Assembly: GCA_964610055.1 (NCBI GenBank)
Contig: CAZSUC010000001.1
Location: 216,867-280,866, forward strand
From: an uncultured Candidatus Saccharibacteria bacterium
Lineage (GTDB): Bacteria > Patescibacteriota > Andersenbacteria > UBA10190
Length of the DNA stretch: 64,000 nucleotides
Reading direction: 5' to 3'
Shown here: in pieces, positions 5,572-55,447 of the stretch
Position numbering within the stretch: position 1 is the stretch's first letter
Layout of the letters: each line of letters starts with the position of its first letter
Notes under the pieces: generated by a model
What the model was told of the DNA's origin: nothing
Databases searched by the model: none
The model's input: only the letters and a program-made list of their open reading frames with translations
Program-made: the position numbers and the translations under genes

Positions 5572-5610
5572 TCCGCGCCCGACGCTTTGTGTCCGGGCGC
5601 TTTTTTATTA
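5572..5610 (+). terminator. rho-independent terminator (copy 1 of a repeated element)
   Basis: GCGCCCGGACGCTTTGTGTCCGGGCGC perfect hairpin followed by TTTTTTATT. Confidence 0.6.
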
Positions 5611-5698: not shown

Positions 5699-6193
5699 AT
5701 GTCCAAGCGCACTGAATTGGTTATCGCGATTTATCTCGCCTGTTTCTTGCTCGTGCTGAACTGGATCGGTTTATTCAATCTTATTGGCCAGCGTCTTATG
5801 CAGACCTATGGCCAACAATCCCCGCCTATTCCAGCAAAGGAGTGCCAGTCGACGCCTCCAGCTCATCACGTCGTCGATTCGTACGTTCAGCCCGCTTTGT
5901 TCACGGAACCTGTCAAAACCACTAGATTGATCACCTCGCGCAGTGATGACATTCTTATTTCCAAGGCCTGGCAGAAATTTCTTGAAAATCATATGAGCTT
6001 CATTGTGAGCTGTACTTCTCAGTACCAACCTTTGCGGGCAGGGGAGAAGCTAGTGGTTTTCCCTGTCTCCGGGTTGCCTCATGTCAGTATCGAAGCGCAT
6101 ATTGATTTCGAAAAAGGCGAAATCTGGGCCTGCATTAACGGCGGAGTCCTTCCTGATGACTGGGCTGACCTTGCTGACGGGCCTGACCCATGA
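5699..6193 (+). CDS. hypothetical membrane-anchored protein
   Basis: 164 aa ORF with an N-terminal TM helix, bracketed by the two repeated terminators. Confidence 0.45.
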   Translation: MSKRTELVIAIYLACFLLVLNWIGLFNLIGQRLMQTYGQQSPPIPAKECQSTPPAHHVVDSYVQPALFTEPVKTTRLITSRSDDILISKAWQKFLENHMSFIVSCTSQYQPLRAGEKLVVFPVSGLPHVSIEAHIDFEKGEIWACINGGVLPDDWADLADGPDP

Positions 6194-6205
6194 AAGACCT
6201 CATCC

Positions 6206-6245
6206 TTTTCGCGCCCGACGCTTTGCGTCCGGGCGCTCTTTTTAT
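6206..6245 (+). terminator. rho-independent terminator (copy 2 of repeated element)
   Basis: CGCGCCCGACGCTTTGCGTCCGGGCGC + TCTTTTTATTT. Differs from copy 1 by one base in the stem/loop. Confidence 0.6.
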
Positions 6246-12162: not shown

Positions 12163-14376
12163 ATGGAACCACAAATATCATCTCAGGAGGGAACAGTTAC
12201 AGTGACTGTTCAAGGTAAAAAATTGTCTATATCTACCGGCGAACTAGCTCGTCAAGCCGGTGGGTCAGTGTTAGTCCAGTATGGCGACACCATTGTTCTT
12301 GGTACGGCTACTATGGGGCGACCTCTTTCTCCGGATGGCGATTTTCTCCCTCTACTTGTCGATTACGAAGAAAAATTCTATGCCGCCGGCAAAATTAAAG
12401 GTAGCCGTTTTATCAAAAGAGAAGGGAAGCCTAATGACGAAGCTATCCTGACTGCTCGACTTATTGACCGGGCTATCCGTCCGCTTTTCCCTGATGACAT
12501 GATTAATGATTGTCAGGTAGTATGCACGGTACTCTCTTATGATGGTGAAAATGATCCTGATATCCCTGCGATGATCGCAGCGTTTTCAGCCCTTCATGTT
12601 TCTGATGTTCCTTGGCAAGGCCCATTAGCTGCAGTGAGAATCGCTCATATTGACGGGCAATTCGTCGCTAATCCTAGCAACGAACAGCGCGAACAAAGCG
12701 CCATGGATTTAGTTATTGCTGGTACCAGGGATCGTATCGTTATGCTTGAAGCCGGAGCCAATGAAGTCTCGGAAGAAGTTATTTTAGATGCGTTTGAAGT
12801 CGCACAGCAATTAATGGGTGACATTGCTGAGGCTATGAACCAATTACAAAAACAAATTGGTAAAACCAAACGTGAACCGAGCTTAATGAAAGTCAATGAA
12901 ACCGCATCTCAACGGGTTTTTGCTCCAGCCAAAGAGCTTTTAATCAAAAAGTTAGCCAATGCTCACACTAAAGATGAGATCGGGACGGCTGAAAACGAAA
13001 CCGCTCTTGAAATATCAGCGCAATTATCTGACGAAGATAAAGAATCTATTAGCGATCAAGACGTTCGTAAACAAGTCCATTCCGCTTTCGCTGCCTATTT
13101 TCGTGAACGTGTTTTAGGGGAAGGGTGGCGTTCTGACGGACGCGGGCTTGAAGATATTCGTCCTTTAAAAATTAAAGCTGGCCTTTTGCCTCGTACTCAT
13201 GGTACCGGTCTGTTTCAGCGTGGAGATACCCAAGTCTTAACCGTTCTAACGCTCGGTGGCCCTTCTGATGTTCTGTTCCTTGACACTATGGAAGTTGAAG
13301 AAAAGAAACGTTATATCCATTATTATAATTTTCCTGGATTTTCAGTGGGTGAAGTACGTCCCAGCCGCGGTCCTGGTCGACGCGAAATTGGTCACGGTGC
13401 TTTAGCTGAACGCGCTTTAATCCCTGTACTACCCGAAAAAGATTCTTGGCCTTATACGATGTTGTTAGTCTCAGAAGTACTCGAAAGTCACGGCTCTTCT
13501 TCGATGGCTTCAGTTTGTGGTTCTACTCTCGCCTTAATGGATGCCGGCGTTCCTATCAAAAAACCAGTTGCCGGTATTGCTATGGGTCTTGTAACTGACG
13601 GGGAAGGTAACTTTAAAGTCTTAACTGACATTGCTGGAATTGAAGACGAGAAAGGGGATATGGACTTCAAAGTCGCTGGCACTACTGATGGCATTACTGC
13701 TATTCAAATGGATATAAAAGTTACTGGGCTTAATCGGGATATCCTATCTCAAGCTCTCGCTCAAGCTCGTCGCGCACGTGAATTTATCCTTGATAAAATG
13801 AGTCAAGTTATAGCTCAACCCAGAGCCGAATTGTCTCCATACGCTCCTCGTATTGAGCTAGTCAAAATTGATCCATCCAAAATCGGTGAACTCATTGGAC
13901 CTAAAGGAAAAAATATCAATGAGATTATTGAAAAAACGGGTGTCGAGATTGATATTGATGATGATGGACTTGTATCAATTACCTCAACTGATCAAAAAGG
14001 AATGTCTGAGGCATTAGATTGGGTTAAGAATATGACTCGCGAGATTAAAGTAGGCGAAAAGTTCGACGGTCGTGTCACTAGAATTATGGATTTTGGCGCT
14101 TTTGTTGAGCTTATTCCTGGAGCAGAAGGTATGGTGCATATCTCTCAATTTCGTGATGAACGTGTTAATAATATTCACGATGTTGTTAAAGTTGGAGACA
14201 TTATACCTGTGGTTGTCATCGAAATTGACGCTATGAAACGCATCAACCTGTCGCACAAGGCCGCTTTGCCCGGAGCTAAATTACCATCTAAGACAGATCA
14301 TAAAAATAGTAACGGATCTCGCTATCAATCAGGCAAAAGACCAACTCCTCCTCGACCCCCTCACATCGCTGGATAG
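12163..14376 (+). CDS. pnp: polyribonucleotide nucleotidyltransferase (PNPase)
   Basis: 737 aa with two RNase PH domains, KH (…IGPKGKNINEI…) and S1 (…GRVTRIMDFGAFVEL…) domains, and a Pro-rich C-terminus. Confidence 0.95.
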   Translation: MEPQISSQEGTVTVTVQGKKLSISTGELARQAGGSVLVQYGDTIVLGTATMGRPLSPDGDFLPLLVDYEEKFYAAGKIKGSRFIKREGKPNDEAILTARLIDRAIRPLFPDDMINDCQVVCTVLSYDGENDPDIPAMIAAFSALHVSDVPWQGPLAAVRIAHIDGQFVANPSNEQREQSAMDLVIAGTRDRIVMLEAGANEVSEEVILDAFEVAQQLMGDIAEAMNQLQKQIGKTKREPSLMKVNETASQRVFAPAKELLIKKLANAHTKDEIGTAENETALEISAQLSDEDKESISDQDVRKQVHSAFAAYFRERVLGEGWRSDGRGLEDIRPLKIKAGLLPRTHGTGLFQRGDTQVLTVLTLGGPSDVLFLDTMEVEEKKRYIHYYNFPGFSVGEVRPSRGPGRREIGHGALAERALIPVLPEKDSWPYTMLLVSEVLESHGSSSMASVCGSTLALMDAGVPIKKPVAGIAMGLVTDGEGNFKVLTDIAGIEDEKGDMDFKVAGTTDGITAIQMDIKVTGLNRDILSQALAQARRAREFILDKMSQVIAQPRAELSPYAPRIELVKIDPSKIGELIGPKGKNINEIIEKTGVEIDIDDDGLVSITSTDQKGMSEALDWVKNMTREIKVGEKFDGRVTRIMDFGAFVELIPGAEGMVHISQFRDERVNNIHDVVKVGDIIPVVVIEIDAMKRINLSHKAALPGAKLPSKTDHKNSNGSRYQSGKRPTPPRPPHIAG

Positions 14377-45504: not shown

Positions 45505-46008
45505 ATGCTTAACGTTAAACCTTTCCAGGAGACTTTGCACGGTGGCTATTGTGGTCCAGCAAGCCTAAAAATGGTCTTAAACTATTACGGCCGAGATAAA
45601 AGCGAAGAAGAGATAGCTGTGCAATGCAAACGCGACCCCGATCTTGGCACTACCGATATTGCTCTTAAACAAGTCGCCGAAAACTATGGATTTGAAGTAA
45701 TTATCCAAGATAAAGCCTCGTTTGATGACCTAAAGCACTGGTTAGACCGAAAAGTACCTGTAATCGTTAATTGGTTTACTCGCGGTCGTTCGAACTATTC
45801 AGACTCTGAAGTTCCTGACGGTCATTATTCTGTCGTCATCGGTTTAGACGCTAACAACATCTATCTCCAAGACCCGGAAATAGGGAATATACGCACTATC
45901 AGCCGGGATAATTTCCTAAAAGTATGGTTTGATTTCAAATCCAGCCACATCCAATCATGGGAAGATTTAATCCTCCGGCAAATCATCGCCATTTATCCTA
46001 AAGAGTAA
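45505..46008 (+). CDS. stand-alone peptidase C39-like domain protein
   Basis: HGGYCGPASLKMVLNYYG (catalytic Cys context) plus downstream His (DGHYSVVIG) and Asp (QDPE), typical of the C39/C39-like papain fold. Confidence 0.6.
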   Translation: MLNVKPFQETLHGGYCGPASLKMVLNYYGRDKSEEEIAVQCKRDPDLGTTDIALKQVAENYGFEVIIQDKASFDDLKHWLDRKVPVIVNWFTRGRSNYSDSEVPDGHYSVVIGLDANNIYLQDPEIGNIRTISRDNFLKVWFDFKSSHIQSWEDLILRQIIAIYPKE

Positions 46009-46024
46009 TAAAATTGTTCATCAT

Positions 46025-46420
46025 ATGAAAAAAGAAAGCGTTGGTATTCTGATTACAAATAAAGCCGGAGAATACCTTTTACAAATGCGAGATGGAACCC
46101 CTGGTATTTGCAACCCTTTACGCTGGAACTTTTTTGGCGGTCGACGCAATAATCTCGAAGAAATTATTTCCGGAGCTATGCGTGAGTTATCTGAAGAATT
46201 AGATATTATTGCGAATTCAGAAGAATTCAAAATTCTTGGGGACATTATTTTTCCTGACGGTGAGTTTTACACTCTTACTCAATATTTGAAACCAATAACT
46301 TGGCGCGATTTCAGTGTTAATGAAGGCGCTGGAGCAGCTTTTTTTACGAAGCAAGAGCTAGAACAAATTAACATTACCGAAAAAACCAAACTACTAATCC
46401 ATAAATTTATTATTGGATAA
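46025..46420 (+). CDS. NUDIX hydrolase
   Basis: Nudix box FGGRRNNLEEIISGAMRELSEELDI. Confidence 0.7.
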   Translation: MKKESVGILITNKAGEYLLQMRDGTPGICNPLRWNFFGGRRNNLEEIISGAMRELSEELDIIANSEEFKILGDIIFPDGEFYTLTQYLKPITWRDFSVNEGAGAAFFTKQELEQINITEKTKLLIHKFIIG

Positions 46421-46423
46421 ATA

Positions 46424-46876
46424 ATGTTAACATGCGTTTTTGAAAACGGAGACGAAGCATCACTGCGACATGCAGTCGTGCAAGGAATTGTGCTAAATCA
46501 GGATAACCAACTCATGCTTATTAAGCGGGCAGTCAACTTGATTGAAGGAAGTAAATGGGCCTTACCGGGTGGTTATGTTGAGCGCGATGAAACGCTTCCC
46601 GAAGCTCTTACACGGGAAGTTAAAGAAGAAACTGGTTGGGAAATTAAAAATATAAAACTCATTAGTATTTACGATAATCCTAATCGCCCTCGTGAAGATC
46701 GACAAAACATCGCCTTTAACTACATCTGTCTGGCTACTAAGCAAACCGGTCAACATGACCATGAAGTTACCGCAACGCACTGGTTTTCTTTAACGGATCC
46801 AGTCGTTAAGAACCTCGCTTTTGATCATTCTAATGCAGTCAATGATTTTATTAGCCAAAAAAATATTCGTGACTAA
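46424..46876 (+). CDS. NUDIX hydrolase
   Basis: Nudix box LPGGYVERDETLPEALTREVKEETGW. Confidence 0.8.
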   Translation: MLTCVFENGDEASLRHAVVQGIVLNQDNQLMLIKRAVNLIEGSKWALPGGYVERDETLPEALTREVKEETGWEIKNIKLISIYDNPNRPREDRQNIAFNYICLATKQTGQHDHEVTATHWFSLTDPVVKNLAFDHSNAVNDFISQKNIRD

Positions 46877-46981
46877 AATATGGCAATTGCACCGTTTGGC
46901 CTAATTCAGCAAGCATACCAATTAAAATTTTTAATAAGCACTCCAATAACATTGATCATTTAGTAAACGATATTATTAACT

Positions 46982-47563
46982 ATGCCAAAATCTAAAGAAA
47001 TCAAACCTTGGAAACTAATTAACTCCGAAATGGTTTTAGATGAAAAATGGTACCGTGTTCGTAAAGATACTGTCGAAGTCCGCCCAGATCGAATTATTGA
47101 CGATTACTACATCGGTCTTTTCAATGACATTGTTTTAATCCTTGCTCTTACTCCGGACAATAACGTTCCTCTGGTGCGTCAATATAAACATAGAGCCGGG
47201 GAAATCCTCTTAGAACTCCCGGCTGGTTACATGGATCCAGGCGAAGAACCGCTGCATGCCGCTCAAAGAGAATTGCAAGAAGAAACTGGGTTTACTGCTA
47301 AAGATTGGCAATATTTTGGTTGTTTCATCTCAAACTCCGCTAAATCAAAAGGGAATAATGTTCATATTTTTCTTGCGCGCAACGCTGTTCAAACTCACTC
47401 GCAAAACCTAGATCCTAACGAAGACATCGAAATTGTTACTATTCCTTTTCAAGATGCCATTAAAAAAGCTCTTAATCATGAAATCAAAGGCAGTGATAGT
47501 GTTTTGGCTCTCCTTCTAACTGAAAAACAGAAAAAATCAATTTACCGCCACGCGCAAAAATGA
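46982..47563 (+). CDS. NUDIX hydrolase (ADP-ribose pyrophosphatase-like)
   Basis: Nudix box LPAGYMDPGEEPLHAAQRELQEETGF with an N-terminal NudF-like extension. Confidence 0.8.
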   Translation: MPKSKEIKPWKLINSEMVLDEKWYRVRKDTVEVRPDRIIDDYYIGLFNDIVLILALTPDNNVPLVRQYKHRAGEILLELPAGYMDPGEEPLHAAQRELQEETGFTAKDWQYFGCFISNSAKSKGNNVHIFLARNAVQTHSQNLDPNEDIEIVTIPFQDAIKKALNHEIKGSDSVLALLLTEKQKKSIYRHAQK

Positions 47564-49149: not shown

Positions 49150-50299
49150 CACCTAAAATTACCTCAACTTTCTCTACATCATCCGGACTTAACGCAAAAT
49201 GAGCTCGTAAATAACCCGTATCAGCACTCCCAGGCCTAAAGAAAGGAATACCAGGCGCCACCGCGATGCCTTTATCTAATAGCTCCTGCATCGCTGCCAT
49301 ATCACTGGCGCGATTATGTTTTACCATCATGTAATAAGCCCCCTGCGGCGACACTGGTTCCATGCCATATTTCTCAAAAGCAGCCATAATTCTTATTCGA
49401 TTATTTCGATATTGTCCCACTAAATCTGACACAAACCGATCTAATTGGTTGCTTTCTGTTTGCCATAAGTCTGCTAAAATCAATTGCGCTGGCGCTGGTG
49501 CACCTACGTATAAAGCCTCATGAATATGCGTCATATTAGCCCGTCGTTCAGGAGCAGTTATCGCATATCCTGTTCTCCAGCCAGCTAAGGCTAAATTCTT
49601 GGAAAAACTCCTACAGATTACTAAGTGGTTTAAATCGGAAGCTAAACTTAAAAGGGAAGTATAATCATTTTCCCAAATAAAATCTTGATAAACCTCATCC
49701 ATTACTAGCAGCACATTATTACGAACACATAAATTGTACAATTTTTCTAAATCATCCTTATCAATCACTGTGCCTGTCGGATTAGCTGGATTTCCAATTA
49801 ATAATGCCTTGAGCCCCGGGATTTTTTGGCCAATAGTTTCCCAGTTCAATTTAAATTCAGTATTGTAGGGAATGTATTCCGTAACCGCTTGAATAGCTTG
49901 AATGGCCCAATTATGAGCTGGATAAAAAGGCTCCAACAAGCCTACTTTATCGCCGGGAGCGCATACTGTTCTTAAAGCAGAAACTACTCCACCTGTTACT
50001 CCATTAGTTGCCATTACTTCCTCTAAAGTTAAGTCAGCTCTTTCTCTTTGCAAGCGATTTAATAGTGCTGCTCTATATTCCTTATATCCTGCTGGAGAAG
50101 CATAAGTATGCATTCGGCGCTCTTTAAACCTCTCATTTAATTTATCCAAGAAAATCTTAGGTGGGGCAGTATGAACTACTCCTTGCGCCATATCAATTGC
50201 TCCAGCTTCAACTGCCATGTCGGCCATTTCTCGGCCTGTTGGTAAATGCGTCCCGTTATTTTTAATCATCAAAACCTTGGCATCGATAACATTTTTCAT
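49142..50299 (-). CDS. PLP-dependent aminotransferase (class I/II, AAT fold)
   Basis: SFSKNLALAGWRTGY (PLP-lysine block), NPANPTG, and a C-terminal R for substrate carboxylate. Confidence 0.85.
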   Translation of the reverse strand: MKNVIDAKVLMIKNNGTHLPTGREMADMAVEAGAIDMAQGVVHTAPPKIFLDKLNERFKERRMHTYASPAGYKEYRAALLNRLQRERADLTLEEVMATNGVTGGVVSALRTVCAPGDKVGLLEPFYPAHNWAIQAIQAVTEYIPYNTEFKLNWETIGQKIPGLKALLIGNPANPTGTVIDKDDLEKLYNLCVRNNVLLVMDEVYQDFIWENDYTSLLSLASDLNHLVICRSFSKNLALAGWRTGYAITAPERRANMTHIHEALYVGAPAPAQLILADLWQTESNQLDRFVSDLVGQYRNNRIRIMAAFEKYGMEPVSPQGAYYMMVKHNRASDMAAMQELLDKGIAVAPGIPFFRPGSADTGYLRAHFALSPDDVEKVEVILGAS

Positions 50300-50322
50300 A
50301 AGCTAAGGATAGCTCCATTTTC

Positions 50323-50356
50323 GCCCAATAAAAAGCGGCAGGTGATACCCGCCGCA
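50323..50356 (-). terminator. rho-independent terminator closing the RiPP operon
   Basis: Minus-strand GCGGCGGGTATCACCTGCCGC hairpin followed by TTTTTATTGGG. Lies between the small membrane-protein gene and the aminotransferase start. Confidence 0.5.
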
Positions 50357-50381
50357 TAAACCACCTGGATTTCATGCTGCT

Positions 50382-50657
50382 TTAGCCGAAAAGCCAGGGG
50401 ACCAGAGACCAGAAAGCCCAATGTGCCATGTAACCGATGCCACACATCAGCAGGGTTACAACCGTGACGATCATCCAAAGAGGAGTCTGGAATGGCGCTG
50501 CAAAATCAACGGATTCACTGGGCGCACTTGTCTCTAAGTTCGCATGCGGCAACAGGCCATCCCGAGCGCGGGACTCCCACGCAATCTTGCTAGGAGTCTC
50601 ACTGTCATTCCTGTGATTTTGATCCGCACCAACATCGTAAGAACTCCCGTGCATCAC
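50382..50657 (-). CDS. small membrane protein (2 C-terminal TM helices); candidate immunity/export accessory
   Basis: 91 aa with a hydrophilic N-terminus and a C-terminal WMIVTVVTLLMCGIGYMAHWAFWSLVPWLF. It is the last gene of the operon and has higher GC than the host background. Confidence 0.4.
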   Translation of the reverse strand: MMHGSSYDVGADQNHRNDSETPSKIAWESRARDGLLPHANLETSAPSESVDFAAPFQTPLWMIVTVVTLLMCGIGYMAHWAFWSLVPWLFG

Positions 50658-50796
50658 ATAACCCTCCTAAAAAGGACAAAATCACACAACCTACTACTAA
50701 TCAAAAATTACAGTCAATAACACAAAATTACAACCATGCCGTGTCAATTGTTCTTAACACGCAGATTCAAACTTAATTAACAATAGGTTGGTAATT

Positions 50797-51471
50797 CTAA
50801 AAAATTTCCTCTGCTTTGACCTCCACAATTGCCGCCGGATTCTTAATATTCCGTTTCGCCATATACTGCCGCACCATATCATACCCCAGCGAATACCCAG
50901 TCCACTTTTTTATACCGTTCCCCCCGTAAAACCAATCATCGCGGTTAAAATCTTCAGACTTCAAGATCGGTTTTGCTTTTTTCCAAATCAGACTCAACTC
51001 CTGACTATCAAGATTATGAGCATACGGCACATCAATATCAGAATACATAAATTCCTCAAACATTGACGGCAATCCCTCGTCAACTAACGCCTCACCCAAT
51101 GTTTTTGCTACTGGCCAAGTGGCATATCGTCTAGCATGGCACATCTCATGGGCAATTGCTGATGGCATCCATTGTTTTACATTATGAATTATCCCATTTT
51201 TATGTTTTGGGTCTATAAAAATTAGAATTGTATCTGCTTCGCCGCACCGGCCTCCTACACCCTGCTCCGGAATAGTCGCAAATTTATCCGCATAAACCAA
51301 AATATTACACTCCTTAAGATTAAGCCATTTATTACAGTCAGTCACAGCCTCTCGCGCCACTTCTAAAACATTAGCCGCATCTAGCACTTCCGCATCTTGA
51401 TCATGTATCCGGTACATTAAATGGATATAAATTTTACTGCTAGTTATCTTGTATGAGAATTTTGTGAGCAT
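50797..51471 (-). CDS. putative Zn-dependent metallopeptidase (HExxH; DUF2268-like?)
   Basis: SAIAHEMCHARRY contains HEMCH with a downstream Glu (VDEGLPSMFEEF). Immediately downstream of the precursor gene in the same orientation. Confidence 0.5.
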   Translation of the reverse strand: MLTKFSYKITSSKIYIHLMYRIHDQDAEVLDAANVLEVAREAVTDCNKWLNLKECNILVYADKFATIPEQGVGGRCGEADTILIFIDPKHKNGIIHNVKQWMPSAIAHEMCHARRYATWPVAKTLGEALVDEGLPSMFEEFMYSDIDVPYAHNLDSQELSLIWKKAKPILKSEDFNRDDWFYGGNGIKKWTGYSLGYDMVRQYMAKRNIKNPAAIVEVKAEEIF

Positions 51472-51490
51472 ACCACCGTATGATCATAGG

Positions 51491-51526
51491 ATTAATAAAA
51501 GGGCCGACTGTATAGGAGCCGGCCCA
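51491..51526 (-). terminator. intra-operon partial terminator/attenuator immediately after precursor gene
   Basis: Minus-strand GGGCCGGCTCCTATACAGTCGGCCC hairpin followed by TTTTATTAAT. Sits 17 nt after the precursor stop codon. Confidence 0.45.
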
Positions 51527-51542
51527 ACGCGGAGAGGATTGG

Positions 51543-51725
51543 CTAGCGGCTGCACTTACCGCCGCCGTTTGATCCGCCACCGCTGCACTTACCGCCGCCG
51601 TTTGATCCGCCGGCACATCCGTTTCCGCTTGCTTGCATCTCGCGGGTAGAAATACCGCGAGAATAAGCGAGCCGCGTCACCTTCAGTTGAGGAGACGCTT
51701 TTTTCGCAACCGTCTCTGACGGCAC
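51543..51725 (-). CDS. RiPP precursor peptide, microcin B17-like Gly/Ser/Cys/Asn-rich core (LAP/TOMM substrate)
   Basis: 60 aa: MPSETVAKKASPQLKVTRLAYSRGISTREMQAS | GNGCAGGSNGGGKCSGGGSNGGGKCSR. GTG start with AAGGAGGT 5 nt upstream. Lies 15 nt downstream of the YcaO gene. The core has 3 Cys, 4 Ser, 3 Asn and 14 Gly in 27 residues. Confidence 0.7.
   Translation of the reverse strand: MPSETVAKKASPQLKVTRLAYSRGISTREMQASGNGCAGGSNGGGKCSGGGSNGGGKCSR
51549..51611. repeat. perfect 33-nt direct tandem repeat (x2) inside precursor core
   Basis: GCTGCACTTACCGCCGCCGTTTGATCCGCC occurs at 51549 and again at 51582 (period 33). It encodes the duplicated core module GGSNGGGKCS. Confidence 0.85.
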
Positions 51726-51740
51726 AACGAACCTCCTTTC

Positions 51741-53603
51741 CTAATCCAAAGGGTGGACAGAAAATCTTAGAGGCACATCCTTAACTTCAACGACACGAGT
51801 ATGCGGGAGCTGGTTGAACCCAAACGTCAAAGGAACAAACCAGGGACTCAGGAGCCGCACCACCCTCAATCCCTGTACCTCACCATACGCAACCGAGTAC
51901 AGCGCGTCAACACCTAATTGTCGACACACTTTGACAACGTCGGCGCTTTCAACAACCTCTTCGGAAAAGCAAGGCTTCGTTAACTCTGACTCTGAAAAAG
52001 TTGTTGAAGACCACAAAAAAGAAGCTGAAACCAAGTTTTCAGGATTGTTAAACCAGCACGCATGGTCATCTGGCGTCCTAACGTCCTGTAAGGCAATTCG
52101 CGGCTTTTCTTCCATGTGCATTGCCGGATCCAGTAACCGGCAAAACAATCCTACCTCAGCTTCTTTCCAAGCACTCAGCAGTGCTTCTTGGACAGTGTTG
52201 CGCGCAGCTGCGCCGCAAATCATCGCCGGCCAATTGTTTCTCCGCAAGACTACTAGCATCGTGGGTACGATAGTCTTGGATATATCAAGGAAATCCACCT
52301 GATATCCAAGTGACCGCACCTTATCGCATTCCGCGACGAGGTCTCGGGGAATCATGCACTCAGACAATCGTGACGGAGGCTGGCGAAAAATCCAGGTTTT
52401 CATGAACGCATCGCGTTCAATGAGCTCTAATAGCGCCGAAAACTGCGCTTTCGCAACAGACATTCCAGCAGCCATACCAGAAGAGTTCGCCCAACGGCAT
52501 CTTTGCTTGTAAGAATGCGGTTGGAAAGGGTAGTAACACAAATCAGCAAGAATCCGCACTTCCTGACCAGTTATAACACTAATGGCATTGCGCCAATAGT
52601 ATTTGCAATCTGGTTTAAAAGGGCGCAGCTCCGCATCCTCGCATTGGCTACCAGTCAAGTGATACAGGGAATCGGGGTCAATCCGATTTTTGCTTCCATG
52701 CAATGACCCATATTCAAGTCCATGAGTATTGTATTTTCCAGCCGCATGCCTCTCCAAAGCTTCTGCGGACGAAACCAAATGCGCTGTGAGCCTATCCCTG
52801 TGCGCGCCACTTGCGACTGGATTACGTCTCCCGTCCCATTGTCCTTTTTGGCGATAGCGAGACATAACTATCGCCACAGACGGAGAAAATCCCGTGGACA
52901 AATCTGTGATTACAGATTGCTGAACCACAGAGCCAAATGGACCACAATAATGCCAATTCCCAACATCAATCCAATTAACTGTGCGCTCGCGGACACTAAT
53001 CTCGCATAGGCATTCATCCTCCGCTAACAAAGAGACAATCGTACTAGCAAGCCACTTACACGTGTCATGCTCAATAAAATTTTCTCCAGGAATAACTACC
53101 TCGCCCGTGTTCCAGAAAAGAGGGCGTGCCCTATCTAGCCAAACGCCAGCAAACGCCCACTCAATCAGCCGCTTAGCCAGAAGCTTTTGCTGTCGTGGTT
53201 TAGATAGCTTGGCCAACAGGTAAAGAGGGCCAAACCGGAAGCCTAAACCATAGCATTTCCCAGTTTTATTAAAAACTGGGAAATGCTGAAAAATTGGCAA
53301 ACCCGAGCAATTCTCTGCGATGTGCCAGTCAAGTCGATCAGGAGGTTGGGTATCCAAAACCCAGACTTGCTCTTGAATCAACAATGACCATAGCGACATC
53401 ATTTTTTCTGGGGGAACATTGCTTTGTTCAGCAAAATTCCAGACAATTACTTGATCAAGCAGGCCATTCTTATAACCTGCACACGCACGTAACAAGTGCG
53501 AGACCTGAGCATCAGCAATGGAAACCTCGTTCTGTAGACTTACGAACTCGGCCCGGTCACTCAGAAAAAACAGATCATATGTAGGGTTAAACCTAACAAT
53601 CAT
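51741..53603 (-). CDS. YcaO-domain cyclodehydratase (TOMM SagD/McbD-type) with ~230 aa N-terminal extension
   Basis: YcaO signature RWANSSGMAAGMSVAKAQFSALLELIERDAF (ATP/Mg-binding S...E..ER motif) and downstream conserved blocks. The N-terminal ~230 aa has no Rossmann motif and is a possible leader-binding/E1-like docking domain. Confidence 0.85.
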   Translation of the reverse strand: MIVRFNPTYDLFFLSDRAEFVSLQNEVSIADAQVSHLLRACAGYKNGLLDQVIVWNFAEQSNVPPEKMMSLWSLLIQEQVWVLDTQPPDRLDWHIAENCSGLPIFQHFPVFNKTGKCYGLGFRFGPLYLLAKLSKPRQQKLLAKRLIEWAFAGVWLDRARPLFWNTGEVVIPGENFIEHDTCKWLASTIVSLLAEDECLCEISVRERTVNWIDVGNWHYCGPFGSVVQQSVITDLSTGFSPSVAIVMSRYRQKGQWDGRRNPVASGAHRDRLTAHLVSSAEALERHAAGKYNTHGLEYGSLHGSKNRIDPDSLYHLTGSQCEDAELRPFKPDCKYYWRNAISVITGQEVRILADLCYYPFQPHSYKQRCRWANSSGMAAGMSVAKAQFSALLELIERDAFMKTWIFRQPPSRLSECMIPRDLVAECDKVRSLGYQVDFLDISKTIVPTMLVVLRRNNWPAMICGAAARNTVQEALLSAWKEAEVGLFCRLLDPAMHMEEKPRIALQDVRTPDDHACWFNNPENLVSASFLWSSTTFSESELTKPCFSEEVVESADVVKVCRQLGVDALYSVAYGEVQGLRVVRLLSPWFVPLTFGFNQLPHTRVVEVKDVPLRFSVHPLD

Positions 53604-54825: not shown

Positions 54826-55447
54826 ATGACCTATCAACATTTCACCGTCGAGGAACGAGAAACAATTCAACTCGGACTTTGGCAGAGGGAGTCGATCAGT
54901 TCCATCGCAAAACGTCTGGGACGCTCAGCCTCGTCCGTCAGTCAAGAGATTAAGAGGAATCTGTACCTCAAGCGTCGCTGGTCACCAGAACAGATTGCGG
55001 GTCGCATCAAGCGTGACCTCGGCGAGACTATTTCTCACGAAGCAATTTACTAATTCATCTACTCCTAGGTGTATCGAGAAGGCCATGGGTATGTGAAGCC
55101 AGCTCATTAAGACTTGCGGCCATACCTACGCCGACGCCGTAAGCGACGCCTTGCTCGCGGTAGCCGTTGTTGCCAGCGAGTGCCGCGACCAAAAACACCC
55201 TCACGGAACGGCGGACCGGTAAGCTCTTCATTATGAAATTGCCTGACCGAACAGCGGCGAGTACCGCCACCGCGGTGACGAGCCATCTGGAGCATCTGCC
55301 ACAGAGACTACGACGGACCCTCACCAGATGAGCTGGCGCATGTCGAAGCCGAGCTCAATGACCGGCCGCGCAAACGGCTCGGTTATTTAACCCCTAACGA
55401 AGCTATAGGGTGTTGCACTTCGAGGTTGAATCTACCGGAGACACGTT
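54826..55447 (+). pseudogene. IS30-family transposase remnant (N-terminal HTH plus C-terminal tail, DDE core deleted or scrambled)
   Basis: The 75-aa ORF MTYQHFTVEERETIQLGLWQRESISSIAKRLGRSASSVSQEIKRN...WSPEQIAGRIK...ISHEAIY matches the IS30 Tnp N-terminus. At 55330..55447 another frame reads DELAHVEAELNDRPRKRLGYLTPNEAI, the typical IS30 C-terminus. The middle ~270 bp is GC-rich with no intact frame. Confidence 0.55.

Follow-up and report, generated by a model that had tools for sequence, protein, structure and literature searches.

Organization of the cluster and its relatives

The window, i.e., the whole stretch of 64,000 nucleotides that was analyzed, revealed on its minus strand a row of features in the order dehydrogenase gene, ycaO, precursor ORF, hairpin, and protease gene (Table 1). 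The gene for the SagB-type dehydrogenase is the first of the cluster and overlaps ycaO by 11 nt; it precedes ycaO also in the related loci L001–L005. The precursor ORF begins 15 nt past the YcaO stop and encodes MPSETVAKKASPQLKVTRLAYSRGISTREMQASGNGCAGGSNGGGKCSGGGSNGGGKCSR, with GCAGGSNGGGKCSGGGSNGGGKCSR as its core, which contains two GGSNGGGKCS units. At the place of its Shine-Dalgarno sequence, relatives harbor GGAGG or AAGGAG. Based on the domains PF02624 and PF00881 and on a core containing Cys/Ser/Thr, the cluster seems to be of the YcaO/SagB-type azole-peptide kind (TOMM/LAP-like), and the deduced precursor, a putative leader followed by a Gly/Ser/Cys core, looks as expected of a thiazole/oxazole-type precursor. 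The start of the protease gene is confirmed by the N-terminus MxxQFSYKLT, which is conserved in relatives, and no well-spaced Shine-Dalgarno sequence was found for this gene. Its product is presumed to be the leader peptidase of the cluster.

Table 1. Positions of genes, signals, and predicted RNA structures in and next to the cluster (window coordinates).
Feature	Position	Strand	Basis or remark
SagB-type FMN dehydrogenase gene, 345 aa	53593..54630	-	Pfam Nitroreductase PF00881, E = 1.3e-14
YcaO cyclodehydratase gene, 620 aa	51741..53603	-	Pfam YcaO PF02624, E = 2.6e-36
Candidate sigma-70-type promoter, TTGACG-N17-TATGGT	51882..51910	-	Promoter scan; in ycaO 3' end
Shine-Dalgarno GGAGG	51732..51736	-	6 nt before precursor GTG; read from sequence
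Precursor ORF, 60 aa, GTG start	51543..51725	-	Putative leader + Gly/Ser/Asn/Cys core
Predicted terminator stem-loop GGGCCGGCU-CCUAUAC-AGUCGGCCC	51501..51525	-	9 bp, 7-nt loop
U-rich tail UUUUAUUAAU	51491..51500	-	4 consecutive U; 7/10 U; T-score 3.92
DUF2268 predicted Zn-metalloprotease gene, 224 aa, HEMCH motif	50797..51471	-	Pfam PF10026, E = 4.3e-26
Second, stronger terminator-like hairpin GCGGCGGGUAUCACCUGCCGC + UUUUUAUU	50335..50355	-	d = 32.8

The two units of the core result from a 33-nt tandem duplication (94% identical, positions 51549–51614); the precursor of L003 (48 aa) has a single unit, and the other relatives have two diverged ones. A small hairpin was also detected over the ycaO stop and part of the precursor Shine-Dalgarno sequence, namely in the window (51741–51775, minus strand), L001–L005, L086, and L087. 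In L004, it is formed by UUGACC..GGUCAA with the TGA stop within the 5' arm, in L003 by UUGAUC..GAUCAA, representing a compensatory change, and in the window and L001 by a CCUCU..(loop)..AGGAGG-type pairing. These predicted folds suggest that translation of the precursor might be coupled to that of YcaO via unmasking of the ribosome-binding site.

In regard to the surroundings, an N-terminal fragment of an IS30-like transposase gene (54826–55053, plus strand) was located a short way upstream of the dehydrogenase gene. Both the window cluster and that of L004 have ThiF-like and aminotransferase genes on their flanks, in differing orientations. A 91-aa ORF between the protease and aminotransferase genes (50657..50382, minus strand) was rejected as a member of the cluster, as no homolog was present at any related locus; its product has a hydrophobic C-terminus, and TTGACT-N18-TAGGTT is located upstream of it (from 50717). 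The second terminator-like hairpin of Table 1 follows 26 nt past the stop of this ORF and 35 nt before the aminotransferase start, and any transcript running through the protease gene likely ends there. At a distance of about 4–5.5 kb from the cluster, we found three NUDIX genes and a gene for a stand-alone C39-like peptidase-domain protein of 167 aa (region 45505–47563, plus strand), which weakly matches bacteriocin-export peptidase domains. A C39/NUDIX neighborhood recurs near the stand-alone protease gene of locus L163 (2621–3673, 5226–5657). ValS encoded in the window displays 57–61% identity to proteins of which the named ones belong mostly to Candidatus Andersenbacteria or Patescibacteria, placing the genome in the candidate phyla radiation with Candidatus Andersenbacteria as the closest named relatives.

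A search among 5.8 billion proteins resulted in only eight full-length relatives of YcaO, with 39–50% identity. The order dehydrogenase, YcaO, precursor, and DUF2268 protease is the same in L001–L005, L086, and L087, and tblastn revealed precursor homologs with 43–72% identity directly after ycaO at these same loci, the precursor gene being conserved in 8 loci. The protease subfamily comprises about 30 proteins at ≥ 43% identity. A metagenome scan with the protease alignment led to L089–L091, and one with the YcaO alignment resulted in pattern matches with zero confirmed relatives. While L089 is a JGI metagenome contig, L008 is a Candidatus Saccharibacteria MAG with a YcaO of 32% identity; the precursors of both differ from those of the close group (...CGNKTCGACKGGCKSTSHH). 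A gene for a DUF2268 protease follows the precursor gene in L001–L005, L008, and L089. In L089 (755–2112), there are two such protease genes in tandem after precursor and hairpin, the second overlapping the end of the first.

The hairpin after the precursor gene and its conservation

The minus-strand spacer that separates the precursor stop from the protease ATG contains GGGCCGGCUCCUAUACAGUCGGCCC (51525..51501) followed by UUUUAUUAAU (51500..51491). The initial annotation had described a hairpin GGGCCGGCTCCTATACAGTCGGCCC-TTTTATTAAT plus T-run, 17 nt after the precursor stop and with a peptidase gene behind it, and we found all of this on the minus strand at 51525..51491. Of the bounds given there, 51491–51526, the lower one was right and the upper one lay one base too far, the stem ending at 51525. 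Nine pairs make up the stem (seven G-C, one G-U, and one A-U), the 17 nt being counted from the stop codon TAG (51545..51543). The protease ATG (51471) lies 29 nt past the stem and 19 nt past the end of the T-run, and the whole spacer between precursor and protease amounts to 71 nt. Fold energy, which had been named as a check on the claim, indicated a stable structure with -15.9 kcal/mol in isolation and -17.1 kcal/mol in a context of 65 nt (z = -2.24; 4 of 200 shuffles equally stable). In a model transcript of 385 nt, the pairs of the stem revealed probabilities of 0.93–1.0, and no competing fold was predicted.

Both strands of the whole window were scanned with a discriminant based on hairpin energy and T-tail, the formula and rule of which are reportedly those of d'Aubenton-Carafa et al. 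1990 for Rho-independent terminators; sites with d ≥ 10 and dG ≤ -10 passed. Altogether, 128 kb of strand contained only 11 terminator-like sites that passed, and the majority of these follow a same-strand ORF stop within 100 nt. Since such sites are few and lie mostly at ORF ends, the genome seems to use canonical intrinsic terminators. The hairpin after the precursor gene tops the list of terminator-like sites within 45–60 kb, and the chance of a site on the right strand within this 71-nt spacer is about 0.006. Its d of 15.8 is positive and the second lowest among the 11 sites of the window, and its U-tract is weaker than that of most others. The hairpin sequence occurs a single time in the window. 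Read on the plus strand, it is followed by AACGCGG and no T-run, so that the element is unidirectional and oriented with the genes. A search against Rfam revealed no family match in 50200–51900 at E ≤ 1, and in the whole window the gathering score was reached by five tRNAs only. Elsewhere, two near-identical terminator hairpins (GCGCCCGACGCTTTG[T/C]GTCCGGGCGC plus T-run) were seen at 5575–5600 and 6211–6236 on the plus strand, flanking a 164-aa ORF (5699–6193); they represent either duplication of a terminator or a small family of repeats.

In comparison with the related loci, a hairpin with U-tract was identified at the same place in 9 of 9 precursor-bearing loci, namely the window, L001–L005, L087, L089, and L008. 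Within the close group, every contig extending past the precursor stop displays a GC hairpin and a T-rich tail before the protease gene, the hairpin being the minimum-energy feature of each spacer. A MAFFT alignment of the hairpins left the 5' arms out of register owing to variable loop lengths; therefore, the table of pairs was built from the minimum-energy fold of each single sequence, with the GCCG core as the anchor. In the close group, the outer four pairs of the core (GCCG/CGGC) are invariant, while other positions of the stem revealed changes from G-C to A-U, as in L087, from C-G to U-A, and from U-G to U-A with pairing kept, including double-sided changes at ≥ 5 stem positions. Hairpin and T-tract are conserved, whereas the spacer in front of them is not, ranging from 17 to 49 nt between stop and stem. 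In L089 and L008, the stems are unrelated to those of the close group (GGGUUGCAAC...GUUGCAACCC and GCUGUAACA...UGUUACAGC), and the tail is UUUUUCUUUUU or UUUUUUCUUUUU. In locus L090, the upstream side has been replaced by a gene for an IS5-like DDE transposase (about 1500–1810), and the hairpin is kept 38 nt before the protease ATG.

Taken together, these comparisons can be regarded as good evidence for a selected, terminator-type RNA structure. With its stable GC stem of 9 bp, a loop of 7 nt, an adjoining U-rich tail in one direction only, its position after a stop codon, the positive score, and conservation at the level of structure, the element resembles canonical Rho-independent terminators; it differs from them in having only four consecutive U and a same-strand gene 29 nt downstream. 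The conservation would also confirm the small ORF as a real, expressed precursor gene.

A candidate promoter in ycaO and a model of expression

The candidate promoter in Table 1 consists of a -35 box TTGACG (51910–51905) and a -10 box TATGGT (51887–51882) with a 17-nt spacer, lying within the last ~180 nt of ycaO and 157–185 nt before the start codon of the precursor. Only 10 such promoter motifs occur in 128 kb of strand. Its predicted start near 51875 would give a leader of ~150 nt ahead of the precursor start codon. In a codon alignment, TTGAC-N17(+1)-TAnnnT was invariant in 8 of 8 homologous ycaO genes, and this at synonymous sites. Thus, the Asp codon within TTGAC is the minority codon GAC in all eight, with GAT being 2–7 times commoner in each gene, the codon before it (Val/Ile/Leu) always ends with TT, and the last base of the -10 box is T across codons for Gly, Asp, and Ser. 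None of 20000 synonymous randomizations resulted in any TTGAC shared by all 8 genes. The synonymous sites of ycaO are otherwise near saturation, one codon being kept at only 6 of 133 invariant degenerate residues. As the motif lies in the coding sequence of eight related genes, whose pairwise third-position identity amounts to 0.32–0.57 at identical residues, shared ancestry may still account for its conservation. Loci L008 and L089 do not have this site and carry TTGACA-N18-TATCAT/TAACCT ~105 nt before the ycaO stop instead. Overall, the pattern of synonymous conservation suggests that the motif may function as an internal promoter. Apart from that, the eight ycaO genes do not differ in GTTCCTTT (51829–51836, minus strand), even at two synonymous third positions (GTT, CCT). 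This stretch covers Val-Pro-Leu codons and lies ~40 nt past the internal start predicted above.

The initial annotation had proposed that a leaky terminator keeps precursor mRNA in excess over enzyme mRNA. As far as a terminator after the precursor gene is concerned, this is well in line with the anatomy of the element, with its conservation in 9 of 9 loci, and with a genuine precursor next to a SagB-type dehydrogenase and YcaO. The idea presupposes a precursor gene at the head of the operon, and here it is the third gene. Since the modifying enzymes, dehydrogenase and YcaO, are encoded upstream, the terminator alone cannot raise the precursor above the enzyme mRNA and would lower the protease message only. 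The argument on stoichiometry would therefore require activity of the candidate internal promoter. Compared to an attenuator, the terminator does directly follow a genuine precursor gene, but no modifying-enzyme genes lie behind it, only that for the DUF2268 protease.

On balance, we favor the reading that the hairpin is a functional Rho-independent terminator ending the precursor gene, with partial read-through and a probable internal promoter. In this case, polymerases coming from a cluster promoter upstream of the dehydrogenase gene would transcribe the precursor ORF, and others would probably start inside ycaO, at the conserved promoter within its final ~180 nt. Formation of the 9-bp GC hairpin and release at the U-tract would lead to transcripts ending ~50 nt past the precursor stop, including a precursor-only mRNA of ~380 nt, the 3' hairpin of which would also shield it against 3' exonucleases. 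A minority of polymerases would read past the imperfect U-tract and reach the protease gene, the start of which lies 29 nt beyond the stem; the level of the protease would therefore stay below those of the precursor and the modifying enzymes. From sequence features and their conservation, we infer that transcription terminates here, that it does so partially, that the internal promoter is active, and that protease mRNA arises by read-through. More tentatively, the hairpin could be one leg of a conserved three-part module comprising the ycaO-embedded promoter, the hairpin at the ycaO stop and Shine-Dalgarno sequence, and the terminator.

Alternative readings, known systems, and implications

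How the protease gene is transcribed depends on how leaky the terminator is. A partial terminator that feeds the protease gene by read-through seems most likely to us, and a hint at read-through is given by the tail in the window, with its four consecutive U and the low d described above. In the close group, the gap between stem and protease ATG is 29–39 nt (29 nt in the window and 33–39 nt in the relatives). A serious rival, though a rather unlikely one, is a terminator that stops transcription completely and marks the boundary of the operon, the DUF2268 protease gene being a separate unit with its own promoter overlapping or directly following the U-tract. Several relatives have long U-tracts with d = 24–49, strong ones being found in L003, L005, L008, L089, and L090, which speaks for efficient and against leaky termination at those loci; for the window itself, the weak U-tract speaks against this reading. 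Other terminators of the window are likewise located 24–100 nt before the next same-strand gene, so that such an arrangement is found beyond the RiPP cluster as well. Furthermore, protease homologs with 43–61% identity occur without adjacent YcaO or precursor genes in L163, L166, and L091, and many distant Patescibacteria loci have the protease gene convergent with ycaO, where it must be transcribed separately. In the case of the stand-alone protease gene of L163 (61% identity), the last ~40 nt before the ATG align with the hairpin-bearing loci, while stem and first five T are absent from its upstream region (TTCTTTAT...ATGCCAAG...). The upstream neighbor in L163 is divergent, which places the promoter of the protease gene within the ~80-nt gap, and the aligning segment of ~40 nt may thus hold a protease-specific promoter or leader.

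On the other hand, the T-run of the window ends only 19 nt before the ATG, and the -35 box of such a promoter would land in the GC stem at the hairpin-bearing loci. The promoter scan of the window gave no sigma-70-like match in the space between T-run and ATG, the sole listed match (51459..51431) being inside the ORF, and inspection of the window and its relatives revealed no convincing -35/-10 pair downstream of the T-run. The fixed order of precursor, hairpin, and protease on one strand in 9 loci also suggests a functional linkage, in favor of the partial terminator.

Intercistronic hairpins can also act as mRNA stabilizers, as in the puf operon of Rhodobacter. Accordingly, the hairpin might mainly be a stabilizer of the mRNA 3' end or a processing boundary, where the transcript is cleaved and 3'-to-5' exonucleases are blocked, so that the precursor segment outlives that of the protease; we consider this improbable as its main role. 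A stable GC stem directly 3' of the precursor ORF at all loci and a gene for polynucleotide phosphorylase in the window (12163–14376) would fit, and in the case of microcin C, stabilization of the message adds to the abundance of mccA (PMC4231749). A stabilizer needs no U-tract, however, and a U-rich tail adjoins the stem at every locus, including those with unrelated stems. That this tail is kept even where the sequence of the stem differs makes a purely protective hairpin less likely. Both roles are compatible, as a terminator hairpin also stabilizes the 3' end it makes.

A chance palindrome or an element at the DNA level without RNA role, such as the end of a mobile element or a recombination site bordering an acquired cassette, is very improbable, for although IS remnants flank the cluster (the IS30-like fragment in the window and the IS5-like gene directly upstream of the L090 hairpin) and the G+C content drops at the hairpin, 9 of 9 loci conserve structure and not sequence, with compensatory changes and unrelated stems, the U-tract is strand-specific and found only in the direction of transcription, the element is unique in the window, and the G+C step from ycaO to the protease gene is common to all relatives. 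This step was also rejected as a scar of insertion: the protease gene lies 2–7 points below ycaO in every relative, which makes it a property of the genes.

Returning to the hairpin as a terminator with partial read-through, it is most likely an ordinary intrinsic terminator, such as those known to follow RiPP precursor genes (PMC4231749, PMC2765633, PMC7113386). With respect to its arrangement, the cluster is similar to that for bottromycin in Streptomyces scabies, where an internal start site before the mid-operon gene btmD, mapped by 5'-tag RNA-seq and modulated by BtmL, is followed by a predicted attenuator between btmD and btmE (PMC7113386). In both cases, the precursor gene lies in the middle of the row with a promoter in or behind the preceding gene and a hairpin after it, which together bracket a short precursor-only transcript, and downstream genes receive less transcription, in the window as a prediction only. 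The two differ in phylum, RiPP class, and downstream gene and show no sequence relationship, and promoter and termination are both predictions in the window.

In Escherichia coli, owing to an intrinsic terminator between mccA and mccB of the microcin C cluster, the short precursor transcript is abundant, and the enzymes are encoded on a read-through transcript that is made in minor amounts (PMC4231749). The predicted terminator of the window has a corresponding position in the spacer behind the precursor ORF. In the microcin C cluster, mccA is the first gene and the terminator is switched on by ribosome binding to the 7-codon ORF (PMC4231749), while in the window cluster the precursor gene is the third, the distance from stop to hairpin varies from 17 to 49 nt among loci, and no antiterminator fold was seen. 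Based on this variable distance and the lack of a competing fold, ribosome control is not indicated, and termination controlled by an antiterminator or by ribosomes was rejected. Read-through from sagA into sagB has been described for the streptolysin S operon (PMC2765633), and terminator-like repeats after lantibiotic structural genes are a general rule (PMC7113386). Like the sagA-sagB region, where read-through is partial, the window cluster is of the thiazole/oxazole type and has a hairpin behind the precursor gene. Unlike in these streptolysin S and lantibiotic clusters, where the precursor gene is promoter-proximal and the modifying enzymes lie behind the terminator, the window has the protease alone behind it.

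Apart from the close group, genes for DUF2268-type homologs (22–31% identity) were found ≤1–2 kb from distant YcaO genes, often on the opposite strand, in L009, L010, L012, L013, L015–L017, L020, L028, L034, L036, L037, L044, L071, L074, and L084, with many Patescibacteria and some other MAGs as hosts. A literature search revealed no paper mentioning DUF2268 together with YcaO, nor one linking intrinsic terminators with Patescibacteria. Because DUF2268 genes are often near YcaO genes and no paper was found that pairs them, DUF2268 proteins may be an unrecognized family of leader peptidases for azole peptides.

Terminators after RiPP precursor genes are a known means of setting ratios of substrate to enzyme. 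The element also shows that the window genome and its cluster-carrying relatives have canonical intrinsic-terminator signals and possibly also sigma-70-like -35/-10 signals. The boundaries from ~51875 to 51491, including the candidate promoter, would be useful for refactoring or heterologous expression of this uncharacterized YcaO/DUF2268 peptide family of uncultured bacteria. The more interesting by-products of the analysis are the promoter motif conserved at synonymous sites and this Patescibacteria peptide family itself. If the three-part module is real, it would yield a ~380-nt precursor-only mRNA together with a scarce leader protease, by means of a promoter inside ycaO that is kept by selection on synonymous sites, and would enable clusters to reach an excess of precursor even though the precursor gene does not come first. 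It would then belong to a previously undescribed azole-peptide family of Patescibacteria with a DUF2268 partner protease.
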